In this document: positions 4,791-62,466 of the stretch, piece by piece
How positions within the stretch are numbered: the stretch's first letter is position 1
Layout of the letters: every line of letters starts with the position of its first letter
NCBI GenBank assembly: GCA_017003895.1
Contig: GCA_017003895.1_4520.1
Source: a phage
Reading direction: 5' to 3' (one strand)
DNA: 64,000 nucleotides
The notes under the pieces: model-generated
Database searches by the model: none
Told to the model about the DNA's origin: nothing
What the model saw: the letters and a program-made list of their open reading frames with translations, nothing else
Position numbers and translations under genes: made by a program

Positions 4791-5150
4791 ACGGAATGAA
4801 AGGAATGCTGGTGCTCGGAATGGAGTATCATCTTTAGAGTATTTAACTAATACGACCATTGGTACCTCTGTTTCTAAATGTCCTGTCAATACACCGATAA
4901 AAATTTGATCAGTGTGCTCAGGGACACGAAAGTTTTTAAGAGGTTCCATAGCAATATGGAATGCACCTGGGAATACTCGATTCAATTCGTCAATCACAGC
5001 TTCGTTAAAAACATCATCCGCTGGGATAACATCTTCAACTACTAGTTCTTGACCATTAAAGCGAAGCATAGATTTCATAACGTTTTCCTCATGTTGTTGA
5101 TGGGATGATAGTATCACACATCCATGTGTTTGTAAACTATCCTTGGACAA
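4785..5150 (-). CDS. Hypothetical protein downstream of alt (alt.-1-like position)
   Basis: 121-aa ORF whose start overlaps the alt stop; no recognisable motif. Confidence 0.5.
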   Translation of the reverse strand: MSKDSLQTHGCVILSSHQQHEENVMKSMLRFNGQELVVEDVIPADDVFNEAVIDELNRVFPGAFHIAMEPLKNFRVPEHTDQIFIGVLTGHLETEVPMVVLVKYSKDDTPFRAPAFLSFRK

Positions 5151-7224
5151 ATTTAAACGGAACTGATTCTAAATCCATTAAAGATGCTAACAATTTCAAA
5201 CCTTTAGGTGCACTAGTTTTTTCTACAAATGAGGAGAACGATACCGGCTCATCCGATTCGATTTCACCCGTCATAGCAACCACCTCGCCCGTTTCCATGA
5301 GAACATCACCATCATAAATGACGGCTTCATCCAACTGGTCTGAGGACATGACTTCAGCTTGAATAAATTTAAGGTTGGATTCTAAACCTGCACCGGTGTC
5401 AGATGACGCATCTGTAATTTTATTTATCTGCAAGAGAATGCCTCTAGGCAAAATAATTTCTTGCTCATTAGGGTGATTACTCAACTGTCCTGGATAAATC
5501 ACGTTAACTTTATGGGCGCCATCAATAGCCCATCCAACGTTAACACGGATTTGTTCTGGAGCATGCATAGCTGTTCTTACTTGACTAGGAGAAATAGTAA
5601 CACCTTCGTCATTATTGTCAATGTTAAGCTCTTTGCGAACTTCTTCAGGAGCAAGTCCAAGGGCAACGTTCTCTTTAAACCCGCCGAAAATAATAGGAGC
5701 TAGTGAAGTGGAAACATAGTTTCTGAAGTAGAATACCTTATTTTTAACCATTGCTTCGTAAATAGGCATTCTGATAGACTGAGCTCTATATAACGTTAGT
5801 CCTTCAGGTAAACGGTCTCCATTTAAAAACGCCGAATCAAGACCATCAATAGCGCGTTTAACTTCATCTTCATCTGCAACATCGTAAAAATCTGGTTTAT
5901 AACGACCCAACAACATATTATTGATATCTGTATACGCAGAAGAGGCATATTCACGAATAGCTCGTTTTTCAGCAACAGAGTATTGTTTAGGGTCACGATT
6001 CATTGTTATATTAAAGGTGCCTCTAGCTGATTCTCGTGCATAAGTATACATCACATTAGACAAGAACGCTGATTTACGTTGTTTCCAAGTTCTTTCAGAT
6101 ACTTCAGCTAAAACGTCGTCAGGCAGTTGGAAATTATCACGTCTAAAATCTTCAAACCATTCGTCTTTAATAGAGTCTGCAATTTCATTTGCAGCTTCAA
6201 CAAAAGCAGCTAATGCTTTAACAGATGTTGTTTTTTCGGTTTTAATTTTCTTAGCAAACTTTTCTAAAGTCGGCTTAATAACACTACCATAAGAAACTTC
6301 ATCGGCAAATTTAAAGGATTCATCAATACGATTATAAATCTTATTTTCGATATCAGCAACTAAAGTGCCTTTTGCTGTGGACGATGCTTGGGCTAGTACG
6401 ATTTCATATGCTTCAGGAAGTAATTCGGCTGTAGCCGGGCCACTAACTTCTTTAGCAGAATTTTCGTATTTCTGGAATAACTCACCTTCTTGACGGTCAG
6501 CTTCTAAAGATTGACTTGCTGCAATAGCACGACGAGAAATTTTAGTGCGAGCAATAACAGGCTTATCTTTACGTTTTTCTTCTACCGCGGCAATAGAACC
6601 AGCGATAGCCGTTTCTTTGGTGACCTTTTCACCGGTCTTTTTACTCACATAAACTTCGCCAACATCAGAATCTACTTTCGTGTACAACTCTGTGTTAATG
6701 TTAGGGATGCCTTTAATATCTTCAATGTTGGCATTTTTACGAACCATCATCACATAGGTGTGTTTACCGGTGAATTGATACATTGCCGACAATACTTTAA
6801 AACGACCACCGGTTTTAGTAGAAACTAAACGAGCAAGAAGAGTTTGAAGCTGCTGTCCACGTCCTTTCAATTTCTTGGTAGGGAATCTGAACAGAACCGC
6901 ATCCATACGAAGAGCTTTAACCTGTTCATATACTGTATTGAAAATGGTGTTGATTGCATCAATAGGAGCAGGACCAAGGCCGTTTTTCAATTCAGCGAGA
7001 TTACCCTTTTCAGACAGACTCATAATAACAACATGGGCATATTTGTCGCCAAGTTTAACTTGTTTTACAGCATCGCCTTCAGAAAGGTAAGAGAATAAGC
7101 GAACTACGATGTTTGTATCGATATCACCAATTTTCCAGACTTGTGGAACTTTAGCTTTAGGGTTCAAATTGACGACAGGAAGACTGCCTTCAGATTCAAA
7201 CACTTCATTTAATTGTTCAGACAT
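5137..7224 (-). CDS. alt: Alt ADP-ribosyltransferase (virion-packaged, modifies host RNA polymerase)
   Basis: 695 aa (T4 Alt about 682 aa); C-terminal region has an ART-like R...S-T-S...E arrangement (YRAQS, YVSTSLAP, QEIILPRG); T4 position between 54 and 30. Confidence 0.75.
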   Translation of the reverse strand: MSEQLNEVFESEGSLPVVNLNPKAKVPQVWKIGDIDTNIVVRLFSYLSEGDAVKQVKLGDKYAHVVIMSLSEKGNLAELKNGLGPAPIDAINTIFNTVYEQVKALRMDAVLFRFPTKKLKGRGQQLQTLLARLVSTKTGGRFKVLSAMYQFTGKHTYVMMVRKNANIEDIKGIPNINTELYTKVDSDVGEVYVSKKTGEKVTKETAIAGSIAAVEEKRKDKPVIARTKISRRAIAASQSLEADRQEGELFQKYENSAKEVSGPATAELLPEAYEIVLAQASSTAKGTLVADIENKIYNRIDESFKFADEVSYGSVIKPTLEKFAKKIKTEKTTSVKALAAFVEAANEIADSIKDEWFEDFRRDNFQLPDDVLAEVSERTWKQRKSAFLSNVMYTYARESARGTFNITMNRDPKQYSVAEKRAIREYASSAYTDINNMLLGRYKPDFYDVADEDEVKRAIDGLDSAFLNGDRLPEGLTLYRAQSIRMPIYEAMVKNKVFYFRNYVSTSLAPIIFGGFKENVALGLAPEEVRKELNIDNNDEGVTISPSQVRTAMHAPEQIRVNVGWAIDGAHKVNVIYPGQLSNHPNEQEIILPRGILLQINKITDASSDTGAGLESNLKFIQAEVMSSDQLDEAVIYDGDVLMETGEVVAMTGEIESDEPVSFSSFVEKTSAPKGLKLLASLMDLESVPFKFVQG

Positions 7225-7244
7225 AGTGTTTTCCTTTTAGTAAT

Positions 7245-7252
7245 AATTTATA
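7245..7252 (-). promoter_or_regulatory. Possible late promoter (TATAAATT on minus strand) upstream of alt
   Basis: Plus-strand aatttata gives TATAAATT on the minus strand, about 20 nt upstream of the alt start; one mismatch to the T4 late consensus TATAAATA. Confidence 0.3.
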
Positions 7253-7255
7253 TTT

Positions 7256-7280
7256 ATGCCAAAAAGAGCCCGAAGGCTCT
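7256..7280 (-). terminator. CUUCGG tetraloop hairpin terminator upstream of alt
   Basis: agagcc-cgaa-ggctct inverted repeat; on the minus strand the hairpin is followed by UUUUU. Confidence 0.5.
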
Positions 7281-7489
7281 TAATCCACAATCGGGAGCAA
7301 AGTACGATAAACTTCAAAATTAGGGCCTTTTTCGTACTTATCGAAATTGTCCATAAAAATATGATAGGAATCGTTATTAGGAAAATCTAATATAATCTGA
7401 GAGCAAGAGGTGGAAACATCTCCACCATCCTTCTTAGCTACAATAACTGTTTCTAAATAAGCTTTCATTATAAACCTGTCTGGGACCAC
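7280..7489 (-). CDS. Hypothetical small protein
   Basis: 69-aa ORF between ligase and alt; start overlaps the ligase stop. Confidence 0.45.
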   Translation of the reverse strand: MVPDRFIMKAYLETVIVAKKDGGDVSTSCSQIILDFPNNDSYHIFMDNFDKYEKGPNFEVYRTLLPIVD

Positions 7490-8961
7490 GGTCCAAATAC
7501 GTCTTCAAACGAATCCGCTTCTGTTTTATCAAAACGGAACCCTTTAATAATTGGAAGGAAAATACCTACAGTACCTTCACGGCCTTTAGAATGAACCCAA
7601 CCATTACATTCACAATCAGCGATACGTCCAATTAATTTACCTTCACGAGCTTCGGTCATTAATCGTTCACGGTCCAAATCATGACGCTCATCTAAAGGAA
7701 TAAGAACCTTTACACCGTCAACTGTTTTATGAGTTGTATCTTTAAAACCTGAACCACAATCAGTTGTAATACGACGACAACGTGATACGAGTTCGACACC
7801 ACCTAATTTGTTAGGGTCTTTAGAGTGTTCATAGTATCCTACAACTTCTAAAGCGATATCAATAACTTCTTTAAATTTAATTAGGTTCTTAGAGCGTTTG
7901 TTTTCCCAGTATGAATCACGGTTTTTAAGGATAATACCTTCAAGACCTTGGTCAACATATTTTTTATAAACCACTTTAGCTTCATCAAGATTACGAACTA
8001 TCTGGTTTTCGATAGGTTCAATTCGTTTAAAGCCTTCAGCCATATTTTCAAGAGCAGCAAAACGAACATCGTATTTCTGACCTTTAATTTTGCCGTCAGA
8101 ATAGACTTCATCTAAAGGAACATAGTCCCAGGCTTGAAGAACCATACCTTCCGCTTCTTTAGGAGAAATAGTCCCTTGAAGAGATTTATTTGCTAAACCA
8201 TTTGAAGTGCTACGGTCTGCAACTTGTACTTCTTCGGATTCTTCATTATCACCAAATAAGAACGACAGGTCATTTCCTGAGCTCACAGCCTTTTTAATAT
8301 CAAATGAATGATAAACTAATTCACCGTCGATTAAAACCCCATTAGGGTGTCTTTCACGAGCTTCTTTAGTCATTTCCATTAGTTCATCTGCTAATAGAGT
8401 AAGACCATGGTATTCATTACCTGCACGAGAAAAGAATTGAACACCATCATCGCGAACTTCAGCGAAACAACGAGCACCATCGGCTTTTAATTGAGCAAAT
8501 GCGGGCCATTTAATATTTTTAGTAATCAATTTCTCGTCATATGCAGATGCTAACATCTGTGGTTGCAATTGAATAAGTCCAGGCCACACCTTATTCGCGA
8601 TAGACACTGAAGCACCTACTTCAAGGTCGCGCATCATTACACGACGAAGGACTTCTACATCATCAGGTTTACCGTCAGCGATATAACCCATGAGCTCTTT
8701 AATTGCCGCATTACCGGTGAGTTTACGAGTGGCTAATGTGAACTCAATAAAATCCAACATGTCATCTAATTCAAGAAGACCATACGCTTGAGACCTTTCA
8801 CCTGGTCCTGGCCATTTCTTAATATAATACTGGATACCACGTGCATATGTTAAACGATACACACGTTCAAGTAATTTGTTGTCCTTATTTTTCTTAAGGA
8901 TTTCCTGTTTTGTTTTAGTAGAACCGATCGCAGCTATTTGGTTTAAAATATCTAAAATCAT
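7468..8961 (-). CDS. 30: ATP-dependent DNA ligase gp30
   Basis: 497 aa (T4 gp30 487 aa); adenylation motif KxDG present (QLKADGARCF); T4 position next to alt. Confidence 0.9.
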   Translation of the reverse strand: MILDILNQIAAIGSTKTKQEILKKNKDNKLLERVYRLTYARGIQYYIKKWPGPGERSQAYGLLELDDMLDFIEFTLATRKLTGNAAIKELMGYIADGKPDDVEVLRRVMMRDLEVGASVSIANKVWPGLIQLQPQMLASAYDEKLITKNIKWPAFAQLKADGARCFAEVRDDGVQFFSRAGNEYHGLTLLADELMEMTKEARERHPNGVLIDGELVYHSFDIKKAVSSGNDLSFLFGDNEESEEVQVADRSTSNGLANKSLQGTISPKEAEGMVLQAWDYVPLDEVYSDGKIKGQKYDVRFAALENMAEGFKRIEPIENQIVRNLDEAKVVYKKYVDQGLEGIILKNRDSYWENKRSKNLIKFKEVIDIALEVVGYYEHSKDPNKLGGVELVSRCRRITTDCGSGFKDTTHKTVDGVKVLIPLDERHDLDRERLMTEAREGKLIGRIADCECNGWVHSKGREGTVGIFLPIIKGFRFDKTEADSFEDVFGPWSQTGL

Positions 8962-9227
8962 TTGATGTCCTCGATTTTGGTTACGGTTCTATTATAAGCC
9001 ACTTCATCTAGAAGCGATTTCAGCGTTTTCTGATAAGTTGTAATCCATTTACCGAGTCCTTCAACATAATATTCTGAAATGTAGATGAACCCTTGTTCAA
9101 CACACTCTTTAAATATTTCTGCGTCTTTTACTGAACGAAACAATGGCCAGTCTCGAAAGAACATGTTAACGTGACCGTAGTCACGTGTGGTATTTTTGCC
9201 ATCTGTAATATCATGAACTACAAACAT
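8958..9227 (-). CDS. Hypothetical protein (30.1 position)
   Basis: 89-aa ORF; stop overlaps the ligase start. Confidence 0.5.
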   Translation of the reverse strand: MFVVHDITDGKNTTRDYGHVNMFFRDWPLFRSVKDAEIFKECVEQGFIYISEYYVEGLGKWITTYQKTLKSLLDEVAYNRTVTKIEDIK

Positions 9228-9236
9228 AATTAACCC

Positions 9237-10061
9237 TTAACAATTTATAGACCAAGTCCATTTAGACGAATCTAAAGGAAAGTTTTGAATCGTCCACCAC
9301 GGCTGCATATCAGTTGGTCCTGGGGTTCGCCAGGTATATGGAGTACGTGTTGTCGAGGGGCCACCAATTTGATTAGGCCATGCACCTGGACTTGTTGCAC
9401 CAGATTCTTTAAGCAAATCCGCCAATCGTTTTAAAAGGTCTTCACGATCTGAATCTGAATTATTCTTAGGCAGAACCAAACGAGATTCAATATCATCCCA
9501 CGTGTGTACACGTTGTGCAGTACGAGGAATGGCATCACGTTCACCACGAGCCAACCAATAAATCGGTACATTAAGAATTTCTGCCGCATGGTCACAATGA
9601 TGAGCTAAATCGTCAACGTAACAAATTACGTTATATTTTGTTTTAGCTAGTTCGAATAATTGTTCCTTTGAAGAATCATGACCACACATCATTACTTCAG
9701 AGAAAGCGCCTGGGAACAAAGCATTCAAATTAAATTGTCTATTCAATCGAGCATCAATTGAATCACCTAGCGCCGTCACGGCTACAAAATTATAGTCTTC
9801 TTTTAGTTTATTGATAACTCGAAGAGCATCAGAATAAGGCGCTAAGTAACGAATAAAATCAGAGCTATTATATTTTTCTATTAATTGTTTACCAAGGTTA
9901 TCGTCGGTATTGAACAGTTTACCAGGAGAAATAAATTTTTCGTCCTGAATCATTTTTAAAATATGTTCTAATGGAAGGTTATATTTTTGGGCAAAATAAG
10001 GAAGTCCAGATTGCCAGCTTAAACATACACCATCAATATCAGTCAAAATAGTAGGCTTCAT
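9237..10061 (-). CDS. HAD-superfamily hydrolase-like protein (possible nucleotidase) with unusual W/P/T-rich C-terminal tail
   Basis: N-terminal motif ILTDIDGV resembles the DxDG(T/V) HAD phosphatase motif I; 274 aa; C-terminal 50 aa low complexity. Confidence 0.5.
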   Translation of the reverse strand: MKPTILTDIDGVCLSWQSGLPYFAQKYNLPLEHILKMIQDEKFISPGKLFNTDDNLGKQLIEKYNSSDFIRYLAPYSDALRVINKLKEDYNFVAVTALGDSIDARLNRQFNLNALFPGAFSEVMMCGHDSSKEQLFELAKTKYNVICYVDDLAHHCDHAAEILNVPIYWLARGERDAIPRTAQRVHTWDDIESRLVLPKNNSDSDREDLLKRLADLLKESGATSPGAWPNQIGGPSTTRTPYTWRTPGPTDMQPWWTIQNFPLDSSKWTWSINC

Positions 10062-10525
10062 AAAGAGTCTCTTAATAGGTTTAACACGTCAATAAATTCA
10101 TCTTCAGTTAGTATTGTATCATCTTTTGTTAGGTGGCTGGCCATGCTGTGCTTCAAAATTTTTCCTTTAGAGGCTTGTAAGGCATCACGAAACCCCTTAT
10201 TTTGGATCGCGGCTTCAAAATATGCATTTGTGTATAATTCTTTCCACGCTTCGGAGTATCTTGAAAATGGAACTCCTAACCAGAAGAGAGTCCCACGGTC
10301 CTGAGCTCTTGCGTAAGACCTTCCAGCTTGCTGTGCAGCCAATCCAGACAACCCAAATATACGTCTTTGTTGTTCAACATTTTTCACCTTACATCCTTGG
10401 AGAAATCCTTCAAGACCTCCGAATTGAATACCATCCATAACAAAAGGCCATTGAGCAAAGTTACTTAATGCACATGACGGCCATTTGAAATTACTTCTTA
10501 TTTCTAATTCAGACATCTTTAACAC
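10058..10525 (-). CDS. YbiA/NADAR-like domain protein (DUF1768 family; possible N-glycosidase/ADP-ribose-processing enzyme)
   Basis: 155 aa; FKWPSCALSNFAQWPFVMDGIQF... resembles the conserved (D/G)xxSNF(A/Y)xxP...DG core of E. coli YbiA as recalled from memory. Confidence 0.45.
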   Translation of the reverse strand: MLKMSELEIRSNFKWPSCALSNFAQWPFVMDGIQFGGLEGFLQGCKVKNVEQQRRIFGLSGLAAQQAGRSYARAQDRGTLFWLGVPFSRYSEAWKELYTNAYFEAAIQNKGFRDALQASKGKILKHSMASHLTKDDTILTEDEFIDVLNLLRDSL

Positions 10526-10721
10526 TTATAATTTCAACATCAGCCCAATGTCCATAAGCCGGTAGACGGTCTTTGATAGATAATCCACCGTCATATTTCA
10601 GCATTTTAATTGTTTTAGTATATGGTTCAACTTTTCGGGCCCATGGGCTTACATCAGTCACACGATAAGTAACTTCAACCATTTCTGTACCTAACAATTT
10701 CTGAATTAATTTCTTTAACAT
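10509..10721 (-). CDS. Hypothetical protein
   Basis: 70-aa ORF in operon orientation; overlaps upstream ORF stop. Confidence 0.45.
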   Translation of the reverse strand: MLKKLIQKLLGTEMVEVTYRVTDVSPWARKVEPYTKTIKMLKYDGGLSIKDRLPAYGHWADVEIISVKDV

Positions 10722-10722
10722 A

Positions 10723-10917
10723 TTATCCTCGCTTTAAAGATTTGATTACAGACAGTTCACCACCCATGCGAACGTCTTCAGTTCCATCGACCCATAGGAC
10801 GGTGTAGGCTTCTTTAATAGTAGAATTACCTAATTTAAAAGCAGGTAAAACCTTTGAAATCATTCCGGGGATACCTATACCTTTTAACTGGACAGTTTGT
10901 GATAAGAATAGTTGCAT
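10723..10917 (-). CDS. Hypothetical protein
   Basis: 64-aa ORF tightly packed between neighbours. Confidence 0.45.
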   Translation of the reverse strand: MQLFLSQTVQLKGIGIPGMISKVLPAFKLGNSTIKEAYTVLWVDGTEDVRMGGELSVIKSLKRG

Positions 10918-11204
10918 TAGAACCTCATCTGAAAGCCGTGCGATTTAACATTACCGCCATAAATGTCGGAGGTATTGACTTCACGTGCGGCGCTAGGGTC
11001 GATGTTAATAACATGGTTGAGCTTAGTGATTGCTAAGGTATCACGACCGTTAACAGTACGGAATTCTACCGGGCACACAACATCAGCATAAGCCTTAATG
11101 GATTCACGAGTGGGCTGTTTGTCGGCAGGAACATCTTTACCCGCTTTAGAGAAAACAACTTCACAGAAATTTTTACGAGTATCAAAATAAGTGGTCATAA
11201 ACAT
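10917..11204 (-). CDS. Hypothetical protein (start moved to internal Met with GAGGA Shine-Dalgarno)
   Basis: Track ORF 10917..11237; the first codons would lie inside the hairpin at 11222-11237, whereas ATG at 11202-11204 has GAGGA 7 nt upstream. Confidence 0.45.
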   Translation of the reverse strand: MFMTTYFDTRKNFCEVVFSKAGKDVPADKQPTRESIKAYADVVCPVEFRTVNGRDTLAITKLNHVINIDPSAAREVNTSDIYGGNVKSHGFQMRF

Positions 11205-11221
11205 AATATTTTCCTCAAAGG

Positions 11222-11237
11222 AGGCCGAAGCCTCCAT
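11222..11237 (-). other. CUUCGG tetraloop RNA hairpin (intercistronic)
   Basis: ggaggc-cgaa-gcctcc inverted repeat; no long U tract on the minus strand, so more likely a stability/processing element than a terminator. Confidence 0.45.
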
Positions 11238-11245
11238 TTTTAAGA

Positions 11246-11611
11246 TTAAATATCGAATTCGTTCAGAACTACATCAAAGATTGCTTCTAGGTGTTCAGGT
11301 TTAGCTCGGTTACTCAGGATATGACGAATCCAAGTTTTAACCAGAAGTTTACGATTAACACCATTCCAGCAAGGATGAGTACCTAAATCACGCTGACGGA
11401 AATCATCATCTAATGCAATTTTAAAATTTGAACCTTCCATCGTGATTGAAACCGTGATACCATTTTCAAATCGCATATAAACGTAATTAGGAGTCATGCA
11501 CTGTTCGATTTCACAAACTGTACCGTTTTCGTGTTTCCATAAGCAAATAACTTCAGAAGAACCAGCAATACCGTTAGAAACATATTTACGTTCGAAGTTG
11601 ATGTAGTTCAT
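11246..11611 (-). CDS. Hypothetical protein
   Basis: 121-aa ORF preceded by an early-type promoter. Confidence 0.55.
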   Translation of the reverse strand: MNYINFERKYVSNGIAGSSEVICLWKHENGTVCEIEQCMTPNYVYMRFENGITVSITMEGSNFKIALDDDFRQRDLGTHPCWNGVNRKLLVKTWIRHILSNRAKPEHLEAIFDVVLNEFDI

Positions 11612-11652
11612 TTTATTCTCCAGATGTTTAAGTTGTTTATTGGTACAGGTCT

Positions 11653-11681
11653 ATAATAACATAACCTGTACCAAAGTAAAC
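11653..11681 (-). promoter_or_regulatory. Early (sigma70-type) promoter, GTTTAC-N17-TATTAT
   Basis: Minus strand reads cagTTTACtttggtacaggttatgtTATTATag; -10 lies in the loop of the inverted repeat ggtacaggt/acctgtacc. Confidence 0.55.
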
Positions 11682-11685
11682 TGTT

Positions 11686-12054
11686 TTATGCAACTTTAAT
11701 CCAATTGTCTAAATTTAAAACACCTTTGGCTTTCATTTTTTCTATCAGGTTATCTGCTGTAATGCGTCCATTTTGATACCATGTAACATCTTCAGAGTAA
11801 CCAGTTTCTTCGTCAACATATGTTTCTGAACGAATTTTACCGGTAATAATAGTTTTTAATTCGTATGTGTCACCTGTGAAAAAGTTTGCTAACACAATTT
11901 TCCAAGAGAAATCATCAGAAGGACCTTCAGGGGTCATACAACCTACGAACTCAAATTGCTCTTTGTATAACATCCACTGGAATTCTTTAATTTCGATAGC
12001 TTTATAACCATCGTGGTCTTTACATTTGATGTATGAGTTCAGATTGATTTTCAT
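11686..12054 (-). CDS. Hypothetical protein
   Basis: 122-aa ORF preceded by an early-type promoter. Confidence 0.55.
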   Translation of the reverse strand: MKINLNSYIKCKDHDGYKAIEIKEFQWMLYKEQFEFVGCMTPEGPSDDFSWKIVLANFFTGDTYELKTIITGKIRSETYVDEETGYSEDVTWYQNGRITADNLIEKMKAKGVLNLDNWIKVA

Positions 12055-12096
12055 TTTGTTCTCCAGGTTGTTTTATTGATTAGGTGGTACAAGTCT

Positions 12097-12125
12097 ATAG
12101 TAACACATCCTACAGGAGAGTAAAC
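12097..12125 (-). promoter_or_regulatory. Early promoter, GTTTAC-N17-TACTAT
   Basis: Minus strand reads gtTTACtctcctgtaggatgtgtTACTATag, about 40 nt upstream of the ORF start at 12054. Confidence 0.5.
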
Positions 12126-12154
12126 ATCTTTTTAAACTTTTTCTGCCCTAAACG

Positions 12155-12180
12155 CACAAAAGGGAGACCGAAGTCTCCCT
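12155..12180 (-). terminator. CUUCGG tetraloop hairpin terminator
   Basis: gggagac-cgaa-gtctccc; minus-strand hairpin followed by UUUU; 22-nt identical copy at 27559-27580. Confidence 0.55.
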
Positions 12181-12184
12181 AAAA

Positions 12185-12364
12185 TTATGCAACAACCTTT
12201 CCAAAACGAGAAGCATCATCTCGAAGAACTGCACGTGCTCTGCGCATGATCTTCTCAACTGTTTGATTAATACGAGAGTTCGACCCACGCTTGTATCCAG
12301 CGCGTTTAGAGGTACCATCAACTTTCTTTTCAACTGCTTTCTTTGCTTTAGCTTGTTTTGCCAT
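12185..12364 (-). CDS. Small highly basic protein (59 aa), not in the supplied ORF track
   Basis: Manual translation of the minus strand gives MAKQAKAKKAVEKKVDGTSKRAGYKRGSNSRINQTVEKIMRRARAVLRDDASRFGKVVA; ends just before the terminator hairpin. Confidence 0.45.
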   Translation of the reverse strand: MAKQAKAKKAVEKKVDGTSKRAGYKRGSNSRINQTVEKIMRRARAVLRDDASRFGKVVA

Positions 12365-12659
12365 TATAAATTCTCTTTAAATGAAAATGCAGGACTTATT
12401 GACATTGCCTGCGCAAGCCCTCAAGGGGAACATAGGTTTTGGATATTTAACGACAGGATAACCATAAACCCGTCATCATACCAACCACGACTTAGACAGA
12501 TAACCTTTTTCTGACGCGTGATAGTACAAAATACATTCAAGAGGTACACCGTAAAACTGCCGGGGCCTTAAAACTATAATGATTCGCAAATCATTAATCA
12601 GACAGTTCGACGGCTCCTCGATTTTCTAGCCGCACTTAAGGTAGCGAATCACCTAAAAC

Positions 12660-12908
12660 TTATTTAAGGGTAATAACAAAATGACGTACTGCTTTACGAG
12701 CTGCAGAAGCCAAAGGCTTAGCATATTTCAGTTCATCTTTTGCTTCCAGTTCAGAGGCCAAAGCTGCCTGTACCGGGTTCAGATGTTTGAAATAATGCAG
12801 GATTTCCAGTGCTTCGGCTTCAACATCAATCGACGCGCCGTAGTTTTCGTGACCGTTATTCCATGCGTTTCGTTGCAGTTCAAGAGCGTGTTGTAATTGT
12901 TTAATCAT
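12660..12908 (-). CDS. rIII: rIII lysis-inhibition accessory protein
   Basis: 82 aa, same length as T4 rIII; immediately downstream of gene 31 as in T4. Confidence 0.6.
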   Translation of the reverse strand: MIKQLQHALELQRNAWNNGHENYGASIDVEAEALEILHYFKHLNPVQAALASELEAKDELKYAKPLASAARKAVRHFVITLK

Positions 12909-13024
12909 TTTAAATTCTCAATTCGAGATAATATTTAGTAGCCACGTTCGTCTGAATTTCACCTTCTTTCGACAAGTCTCTCAGTTGTAGGCTACCGCTT
13001 AGAAGAGTGTTCTCTTCATATAGT

Positions 13025-13032
13025 TATTTATA
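13025..13032 (-). promoter_or_regulatory. Late promoter TATAAATA (minus strand) upstream of rIII
   Basis: Plus-strand tatttata is an exact reverse complement of the T4 late promoter consensus; about 115 nt upstream of the rIII start. Confidence 0.5.
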
Positions 13033-13365
13033 TCACTTATAAAGACACGGAATAGCTTTATAGTGGCATGTTACGAATTTCTGTTTAATTTCTTTAGGTT
13101 GTTTAAGTCCCAAAGCCACAAATGGATGTGGAACATTTCGAATTTGTCCAACTGGTAGTGGAGTCAAATCACCGACTTCAACAAAACCTTCAGGAACATC
13201 AGGACCTACAGAATGAACTACACATAGTTCAGGAACTTCACCTTGAACACGTTTACCAATCACAAGTCCTGATTCGGTAACTTCTTCATCACCTGCTTGA
13301 GCGGGTTCAGAAACCAGAATGACATATTCACCAACAGCACGAATTGGGAGTTGTACTTCAGACAT
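13033..13365 (-). CDS. 31: Co-chaperonin gp31 (GroES-like, required for major capsid protein folding)
   Basis: 110 aa; near-identical along its length to my recollection of T4 gp31 (MSEV...[29 protein letters not shown]...[15 protein letters not shown]). Confidence 0.85.
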
Positions 13366-13394
13366 CTTATTTCCTTGTTGTTTGACGATAGATT

Positions 13395-13420
13395 AATAAT
13401 ACCATACTATTCGTAAAGCA
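13395..13420 (-). promoter_or_regulatory. Candidate MotA-dependent middle promoter for gene 31
   Basis: Minus strand has the MotA box TGCTTTA (plus taaagca 13414-13420), a 13-nt spacer and TATTAT (-10). Confidence 0.4.
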
Positions 13421-13422
13421 TA

Positions 13423-13731
13423 TTACATAAGAAGCAAACGTTCTACCGGAGTACCATCAACCGAAATTACTTTATCAAGGCGGAAAGAACGCCACTGACC
13501 TAACTTGGTATCGAATGCTCGAACTGATTCACGAGGTTCAGAACGAACTTCTGATGCCGGATTGTTATTTTCATATTTGACTTCAAGTTCATCGCGAGAA
13601 GCAAACATAGTGCGTACCTCACCGTTAGCCTTTTCAAATACAACACAATGAACGCCTACAGACAGAATAGTTTTAATACGTTCACGAAGAACCATAGTTT
13701 CTTGTTCAGTTAAAATCATATTATTCACCAC
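13423..13731 (-). CDS. Hypothetical protein (31.1 position)
   Basis: 102-aa ORF between cd and 31. Confidence 0.5.
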   Translation of the reverse strand: MVNNMILTEQETMVLRERIKTILSVGVHCVVFEKANGEVRTMFASRDELEVKYENNNPASEVRSEPRESVRAFDTKLGQWRSFRLDKVISVDGTPVERLLLM

Positions 13732-61218: not shown

Positions 61219-61827
61219 TCAGTAACTGACAATAGACAGATTCCAGATTGTATAGCGTCCATCTTGAATAATAGAATCTACACGCAGTGTAGTCCCTATA
61301 GGGAGCATAAATTCACATTCGTCGGATATAAGTCTAGCATTAGACCGTCTTGTCGCTTCAGGGAAAGCTCCATTGAACTCACAAGATGGCGCGGCCAGAA
61401 TCATGTTAAGCATATGTTCACGGAAGTTGAAAGCAAATGGTGCATCTTTGATGCAGAACATATTAAATGTTCCGTAAAAATTATACGAAGCAAAGTTACG
61501 TGCTACACCGAACACTGGGCTGAAGCTCATTACTCTGTCAAATTTAATAATACTACCAATGCCTTTATCATCAAGTGTGGCCATAGTTTTCTTAGAGATT
61601 CCACGATACATTGTCTCAGGAACAGAAGACGTCCAATTTCTACGAACGATTGAACTTAACTCCTGTTGAATACAGTCTGGCTTGTTTTCCATACACTGCC
61701 ACAGTACACTTTGTTCAATGTCGCTGAATTGACTATCAATTTCGTACTGCAATACATCTTGATATTCGGGGTTTTGAGCACGACGAACAATTTCTTCAAT
61801 TTCACACTCGTTATACGGCATAAACAT
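61219..61827 (-). CDS. Mod-family ADP-ribosyltransferase (modA/modB paralog; probably ModA by position)
   Basis: 202 aa; R-S-E ART triad candidates (MYRGIS, SFSPVF, ECEFMLP); paralogous to the adjacent ORF. Confidence 0.7.
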   Translation of the reverse strand: MFMPYNECEIEEIVRRAQNPEYQDVLQYEIDSQFSDIEQSVLWQCMENKPDCIQQELSSIVRRNWTSSVPETMYRGISKKTMATLDDKGIGSIIKFDRVMSFSPVFGVARNFASYNFYGTFNMFCIKDAPFAFNFREHMLNMILAAPSCEFNGAFPEATRRSNARLISDECEFMLPIGTTLRVDSIIQDGRYTIWNLSIVSY

Positions 61828-61884: not shown

Positions 61885-62466
61885 CTAAAAATTCAACATT
61901 TTCAAATGAATGATTTTGTATAATCGAGATAAAGGGTCATATTCTAAGTCTTCAATTTCCACAATCTCAAATCTAGAGATACCTGAGACCATGTACTCTT
62001 GTTCAGATTCAATCATATCTAGGACGTCAACACGCTTTTCTTCCATAACATGCTTAGGGTTCTTTCCGGCGAGTACAATGTTAACCATGTTTTGGTAGTA
62101 ATCAAAAATGAATGGAGCATTCCTGAGACTAAGAATAGTGTACGTCTGATATTCCCATCTCCCAGAGAATTGACGAGCTGTACTGAAATCAGTTGTGAAC
62201 GATGTTACTCGTCCAGGAGACCAATGGCATCCAACAGAAAGAAGTGAAAGACGTTCTACTTCTTCTGGAGTTACACCACGGTAGAGTTCTACTGGTACTG
62301 TAGAAGTCATATGCTTACGAACAAGATGGTCTAATTCATAGTGGAAATCCGGGTCTTCCTTAGAATCGGTGCAAGCCCAGAGAATGTTTTGTTCTTGGCG
62401 GGTGAATTTGCTATCAATCAGATTTGTTAGGTATTCACGTTCTTGAAGTTCAGATTGACATGTCAT
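61885..62466 (-). CDS. Mod-family ADP-ribosyltransferase (modA/modB paralog; probably ModB by position)
   Basis: 193 aa; R-S-E ART triad candidates (LYRGVT, SFTTDF, EQEYMVS). Confidence 0.7.
   Translation of the reverse strand: MTCQSELQEREYLTNLIDSKFTRQEQNILWACTDSKEDPDFHYELDHLVRKHMTSTVPVELYRGVTPEEVERLSLLSVGCHWSPGRVTSFTTDFSTARQFSGRWEYQTYTILSLRNAPFIFDYYQNMVNIVLAGKNPKHVMEEKRVDVLDMIESEQEYMVSGISRFEIVEIEDLEYDPLSRLYKIIHLKMLNF

Follow-up and report, generated by a model that had tools for sequence, protein, structure and literature searches.

What does a small YbiA/NADAR-like protein do in a phage that also encodes ADP-ribosyltransferases of its own? The question is raised by an open reading frame at 10058..10525, on the minus strand of a 64,000-nucleotide stretch of phage DNA (GenBank assembly GCA_017003895.1, contig GCA_017003895.1_4520.1; the whole stretch is called the window below). 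The original prediction offered two roles for the product: a hydrolase that tempers the phage's own modifications, or one that counters host ADP-ribosylating toxins such as DarT. The reading that best accounts for the evidence, and that we hold with high confidence, is that the gene is a functional adfN, encoding a minimal, core-only NADAR enzyme that would release ADP-ribose from guanine in DNA by hydrolysing the N-glycosidic bond, in the genome of a Mosigvirus-type T-even phage. Publications from 2023-2025 already contain the assignment to NADAR, the activity of the enzyme and its role against DarTG1, and no new biology is claimed for them here.

Read from its GTG codon, as it stands in the open reading frame list of the window, the frame encodes 155 aa. 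The frame itself, as first predicted, is real, its Pfam score, its spread among phages and its codon differences from T4 lying well beyond chance; its start is more likely the ATG at 10516, three codons inside the GTG, which yields a product of 152 aa with the N-terminus MSELEIR. The ATG is probably the true start because it is the annotated one in T4, RB69 and Bas47 and because the upstream GTG corresponds to GCA in T4, so that the three extra codons GTG-TTA-AAG (10517..10525, minus strand) are probably untranslated. On this start the gene, the ortholog of T4 gene 30.3 and a putative DNA ADP-ribosylglycohydrolase of the phage NADAR clade, occupies 10058..10516 on the minus strand (152 aa plus stop). 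Going by the frame coordinates and the sequence, its start overlaps the stop of gene 30.4 (10509..10721) in ATGTCTGA at 10509..10516 on the minus strand, and T4 30.4 matches the window at 10512..10709 by tblastn. At the other end the frame coordinates place the adfN stop over the start of gene 30.2 (9237..10061), in an ATGA at 10058..10061 on the minus strand; the same overlap is found in T4 and Bas47 and is consistent with translational coupling of the two genes. With overlaps at both ends, adfN therefore lies within a tightly packed minus-strand run. Consensus scans of positions 7000-13500 stayed at chance level both for promoters (20 found against 18.9 expected) and for terminators (3 found against 3.9 expected), and no transcription-unit boundaries are assignable from them. 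T4 has an overlapping out-of-frame reading frame, 30.3' (75 aa), inside gene 30.3, whose equivalent in the window is the minus-strand frame 10153..10380. Because that frame meets an in-frame stop at codon 35 in both the window and Bas47, 30.3' was dismissed as a conserved gene, and it is probably no gene.

By its sequence, the window gene is an ortholog of T4 gp30.3 (AdfN) and belongs to the gp30.3/AdfN clade of the NADAR superfamily. The protein matches the Pfam family PF08010, 'Bacteriophage protein GP30.3' (Phage_30_3), at E 2.2e-69, with 232 bits against a cut-off of 36 and over model positions 1-138 of 138. Amino acid identity is 96% to T4 gp30.3, end to end over 152 residues, 98% to the protein of Bas47 (AlbertHofmann, a Mosigvirus) and 97% to that of RB69 over the common 137 residues; one GenBank phage, FL18, encodes the identical protein. 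Six substitutions separate it from T4 (K11R, E89P, I120V, M125I, H128G and D139A), all of them conservative or of surface type, and three from Bas47 (K11R, R74H and D139A), and none in either set is catalytic. The gene order Alt, alt.1, ligase (30), 30.1, 30.2, 30.3, 30.4, 30.5 is that of T4; the T4 gene overlaps 30.4 at its start and 30.2 at its stop just as the window gene does, and the two have the E36/K43/H123 set and the C-terminal helix in common. The genomes differ in type. The closest DNA matches of the window, at 96-97%, include AlbertHofmann (Bas47), which is classified as Mosigvirus, and by this closest classified relative the window is an RB69-like, Mosigvirus-type T-even genome, whereas T4 is a Tequatrovirus.

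The neighbours of adfN in the minus-strand run 5137..10917 are only 41-67% identical to their T4 counterparts as proteins (Alt 41%, ligase 64%, 30.1 58%, 30.2 66%, 30.4 45%, 30.5 67%). Within adfN itself, codon differences from T4 comprise 38 synonymous and 6 non-synonymous changes, at a nucleotide identity of 88.7%. The excess of synonymous changes, set beside the divergence of the neighbours, points to strong purifying selection on adfN. Recent transfer was considered as a cause of the high protein identity to T4 and was rejected, since the nucleotide identity and the number of synonymous differences lead to purifying selection instead.

The family is widespread: tblastn finds it in 1511 phage records from many host genera, 1504 of which cover at least 80% of the query and 780 of which are less than 60% identical to it. 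Genes of the gp30.3 family also occur far outside the T-even phages, in varied neighbourhoods. The homologues of Aeromonas phage AhMtk13a and Ralstonia phage RSP15 sit inside tRNA gene clusters; that of Vibrio phage K566 lies upstream of SbcCD-like genes, and in Rhizobium phage RL38J1 the neighbour is a helicase gene.

Membership of the wider NADAR superfamily emerges from profiles and from the predicted fold. With the single adfN protein as query, a Pfam scan returned no PF08719 match at E<=1, NCBIfam gave no match, a PDB sequence search found nothing, and PHROGs matched only a family of unknown function. The family was then represented by an alignment of 60 sequences, with members down to about 35% identity. 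Its profile retrieves E. coli YbiA from the PDB at E 0.0089 with the residues LSNF...DG...E..Q..K aligned, and 23 of the 60 members individually match PF08719 (best E 1.5e-7); reciprocally, some YbiA-family proteins carry PF08010 matches. An hhalign comparison of the 60-sequence family with a 29-sequence YbiA-family alignment gives a probability of 97.5% and an E of 7.9e-12 over 125 columns. An AlphaFold2 model made on the same 60-sequence alignment (pLDDT 92.8, pTM 0.88) is predicted to adopt the NADAR fold, with an alpha-helical core and small flanking beta-sheets. On profile and model evidence, then, the window protein is a member of the NADAR superfamily, and the YbiA/NADAR assignment put forward from the motif alone stands, with the refinement that the single protein reaches PF08010 directly and PF08719 only through family members and profiles. 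That assignment had been staked on a NADAR match and on the presence of the catalytic residues; the profiles supply the former, and E36, K43 and H123 are invariant across all 60 homologues.

The N-terminal NADAR signature FKWPSCALSNFAQWPFVMDGIQF spans residues 10-32 (10421..10489, minus strand) and aligns to FSNFAAWPIKVDG of YbiA; the pattern first noticed, FxWPxxALSNFAQWPF..DG..F, is exact at these residues of the 152-aa reading. Across the 60 aligned family sequences P13, A16, L17, S18, N19, F20 and F25 do not vary. Glu36 (codon GAA, 10409..10411, minus strand), opposite the E of YbiA SEHYFQAQK, is the predicted catalytic glutamate, and Lys43 (codon AAG, 10388..10390, minus strand), seven residues past it and aligned within the same YbiA segment, the predicted phosphate-coordinating catalytic lysine. 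Glutamate and lysine are likewise seven residues apart in PnNADAR (E43/K50) and E. coli C7 (E88/K95) (PMC11543638). The third position is probably occupied by His123 (codon CAC, 10148..10150, minus strand), a putative catalytic residue of the phage clade at the end of model strand 120-123, the last beta-strand. According to three papers, PMC11543638 and PMC12945103 among them, this residue is His in phage NADARs, Glu in the YbiA family and Asp in the DarG1 (BC4488) family. The hhalign register places H123 opposite the nearly invariant YbiA H126 and leaves the adjacent invariant E125 in a gap, one residue off the published His-for-Glu replacement. It is uncertain, with a register that may be off by one residue here, that H123 replaces the YbiA-family Glu, a correspondence taken from the published structure-based alignments.

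Could the gene be a metabolic enzyme of the YbiA type? The role described for YbiA is that of an N-glycosidase acting in riboflavin metabolism, and cells exposed to DarT1 are not rescued by it (PMC11125620, PMC11543638); an equivalent enzyme in the phage would cleave reactive intermediates of the riboflavin pathway and would be an auxiliary or damage-control gene, not an anti-defence one. The window protein is only 18-20% identical to E. coli YbiA, PF08719 and the Phytophthora NADAR 8bau, and differs from YbiA in having no YWGDGG loop and, by the published alignments, a His where the YbiA-family Glu sits. In the hhalign comparison E125, Y132, W133, G136 and G137, all invariant in the YbiA alignment, are gapped or unmatched against the phage family. 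Since the loop and the family Glu are unmatched, the protein is, as judged from these alignments, not a YbiA-type enzyme. Given that the phage clade conserves neither the W-G-D-G-G loop nor the Glu that defines the YbiA family, in whose place the published alignments put His123, and that the phenotype of the T4 ortholog is specific to DarTG1 (PMC11825919, bioRxiv 10.1101/2025.11.20.689424), a metabolic N-glycosidase has next to no chance of being the right description.

Work on T4 has established what the ortholog does. T-even phages' resistance to DarTG1 was mapped to gene 30.3, which was renamed adfN, for anti-DarT factor NADAR (PMC11825919, Nat Commun 2025). T4 and T2 with adfN deletions form no plaques on DarTG1 hosts, and RB69 is rescued by ectopic adfN (PMC11825919). 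In a transposon screen, insertions in adfN disappeared on DarTG1 hosts specifically, and the gene is dispensable on E. coli K-12 (bioRxiv 10.1101/2025.11.20.689424). Purified AdfN strips ADP-ribose from DarT1-modified DNA and the E36A protein is inactive in vitro; in vivo, T4 E36A and K43A give only partial rescue (PMC11825919). T4 gp30.3 hydrolyses G-ADPr and not T-ADPr (PMC11125620), and it does not remove C-ADPr (PMC12945103). The suggestion that the gene encodes a hydrolase acting against DarT is thus supported, having been published for a 96%-identical protein that is guanine-specific and directed at DarTG1. That the T4 function carries over to the window allele we infer from the 96-98% identity to its relatives, the intact catalytic set and the intact C-terminus.

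The other role in the original prediction hinges on the phage's own ADP-ribosyltransferases. All three, Alt and two Mod proteins, are indeed encoded in the window, Alt being recognised by Pfam and the Mod proteins by tblastn to T4. The Alt homologue (5137..7224, minus strand) matches ADPrib_exo_Tox (PF03496) at E 6.5e-28 and is 41% identical to T4 Alt. The Mod paralogs (61219..61827 and 61885..62466, both minus strand) match T4 ModB at 1.6e-27 and 1.7e-23. These paralogs are highly divergent, with 30-37% identity to T4, and neither reaches a Pfam model at E<=0.1. Both score higher against T4 ModB than against ModA, and the labels ModA and ModB, being given by position, may not mirror the specificities of the two. 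Alt, ModA and ModB target arginine. An enzyme that undid their work would remove ADP-ribose, or RNA attached by ModB, from arginine-modified host proteins. Two points favour such a reversal: the 64-kb window encodes Alt together with two Mod paralogs, and in the locus of Acinetobacter phage DP45 homologues of 30.3 and 30.2 again neighbour ligase and Alt. However, the activities of the T4 enzyme reported in the papers cited here are all on guanine-linked ADP-ribose in nucleic acid, with thymine- and cytosine-linked ADPr left untouched (PMC11125620, PMC12945103), and on E. coli K-12 the phage can do without adfN, needing it only with DarTG1 (PMC11825919, bioRxiv 10.1101/2025.11.20.689424). Moreover, four of the six distant phages compared carry the gene in unrelated contexts (tRNA clusters, SbcCD, helicase), with no Alt or Mod annotated in those 5.4-kb loci. 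Tempering of the phage's own modifications is for these reasons highly improbable; Alt and the two Mod genes are standard T-even gene content, and nothing ties them to AdfN.

An enzyme that removes the products of DarT1 invites comparison with DarG1, the BC4488-family NADAR represented by Geobacter lovleyi 8bat and the E. coli C7 NADAR. The window gene differs from it in being an orphan with no adjacent DarT1: it adjoins 30.2 (HAD-like) and 30.4, no ART gene borders it, and Alt, about 2.8 kb off, is an ARTC-type protein transferase. The protein is also a 152-aa core that lacks the N-terminal extension of DarG1, 133 of its residues aligning to the 219-residue chain, and by the published alignments it has His123 where DarG1 has Asp at the third catalytic position. 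A PADLOC search with the adfN protein gave no match and recognised no DarG-type defence component. On these four features of sequence and context (no adjacent DarT1, no N-terminal extension, His for Asp, no PADLOC match) the window gene is not a DarG1. T4 AdfN, likewise, cannot replace DarG1 in uninfected cells (PMC11125620, PMC11825919).

Orthology does not by itself guarantee a working allele, as RB69 illustrates. In that phage an extra T, at alignment column 425, causes a frameshift in which the last 15 residues are lost and the protein ends at T137. The segment removed includes the predicted C-terminal helix, which in the window covers residues 138-152 (10061..10105, minus strand; helix 138-151 in the model) and is absent from the DarTG1-sensitive RB69 allele. 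An RB69-like truncation of T4 AdfN reduces both activity and rescue in vivo (PMC11825919). RB69 gp30.3 thus resembles the window protein in genus-level background, synteny and sequence over the common part, and differs in being frameshifted and without the helix, a loss that makes RB69 DarTG1-sensitive. Might the window allele have decayed or weakened in the same way, leaving its phage DarTG1-sensitive? RB69 is a Mosigvirus like the nearest relatives of the window, and a few database phages match residues 1-144 only, both of which lend the idea some substance. Yet the window allele is without the extra T and reads through to the T4 stop with its C-terminal helix and catalytic residues intact, its substitution pattern is one of purifying selection, and resistance to DarTG1 is on record for Bas47, whose protein is 98% identical (PMC11825919). 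The same study reports that Bas35-Bas47 are all DarTG1-resistant and that the AdfA variant of Bas47 is non-functional (PMC11825919). A decayed allele is accordingly very hard to credit, and a functional adfN remains the preferred reading. Shortened gp30.3 frames are also seen in several database phages, as matches that end at residue 144 and as proteins of 91-126 aa on contigs as long as 170 kb; they may be further natural loss-of-function alleles like that of RB69, or artefacts of annotation or assembly.

In uninfected E. coli, T4 gp30.3 gives no protection from DarT1 (PMC11125620), and T4 AdfN rescues non-T-even phages only weakly, its full activity being confined to T-even infection (PMC11825919). 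The mechanism therefore appears to need a further T-even factor and is incompletely understood. AdfN-Bas32 and AdfN-Bas60, which were acquired independently, share the anti-DarTG1 function and guanine specificity of T4-type AdfN; unlike it, they come from other NADAR clades and require no T-even infection in order to act; the T4-type clade, that of the window gene, depends on the T-even context (PMC11825919).

Could the adjoining downstream gene supply the missing factor? Gene 30.2 (9237..10061, minus strand) encodes a protein of 274 aa that begins MKPTILTDIDGVCLSW and carries a HAD-type DxDGV motif. Its matches are weak (Pfam HAD_2 at E 0.014; the 5'(3')-deoxyribonucleotidase 2jao at E 0.11), and it belongs to PHROG 420, of unknown function. 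Such a protein might localise AdfN, or it might process an adduct left behind or the ADP-ribose that AdfN sets free. As described above, the adfN stop runs into the start of 30.2 in T4 and Bas47 as well as in the window, and RB69, where ectopic AdfN works fully, has an intact 30.2. Against this, the main text of the HIDEN-SEQ preprint, which finds adfN conditionally essential on a DarTG1 host, makes no mention of 30.2, and four of the six distant loci have no 30.2 nearby. In the other two, Acinetobacter phage DP45 and RB43, the 30.3 homologue has one of 30.2 next to it or close by, and with linkage in only two of six distant loci, 30.2 as an obligate partner by synteny was rejected. That 30.2 is the T-even factor is on balance doubtful, a long shot.

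An additional role, which is no strict rival to a functional adfN directed at DarTG1, would be a range beyond that system, with the enzyme clearing guanine ADP-ribosylation from RNA or the adducts of other guanine-specific transferases. All NADAR families are stated to remove G-ADPr from RNA in vitro, in earlier work cited in the introduction of PMC12945103, and PMC11825919 raises the possibility that certain counter-defences detoxify further types of ADP-ribosylation as well. The spread of the family over 1511 phage records and many host genera points the same way. The sole conditional phenotype reported is nevertheless that with DarTG1 (PMC11825919, bioRxiv 10.1101/2025.11.20.689424), and we regard the wider range as unlikely.

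Taking the window gene as a functional adfN, infection of a DarTG1 host would expose phage DNA to the DarT1 toxin, which would ADP-ribosylate its guanines and block replication. AdfN, acting as an orphan mimic of the antitoxin, would remove the guanine adducts and let replication proceed; in the active site the distal ribose would be positioned and activated by Glu36 together with His123, and the diphosphate held by Lys43. The intact adfN, unlike the allele of its relative RB69, predicts that the window phage would be DarTG1-resistant on DarTG1-bearing E. coli, a prediction that may be useful for host-range prediction and for the choice of therapeutic phages. The gene also touches on the question of why the full activity of T4-type AdfN is limited to T-even infection.
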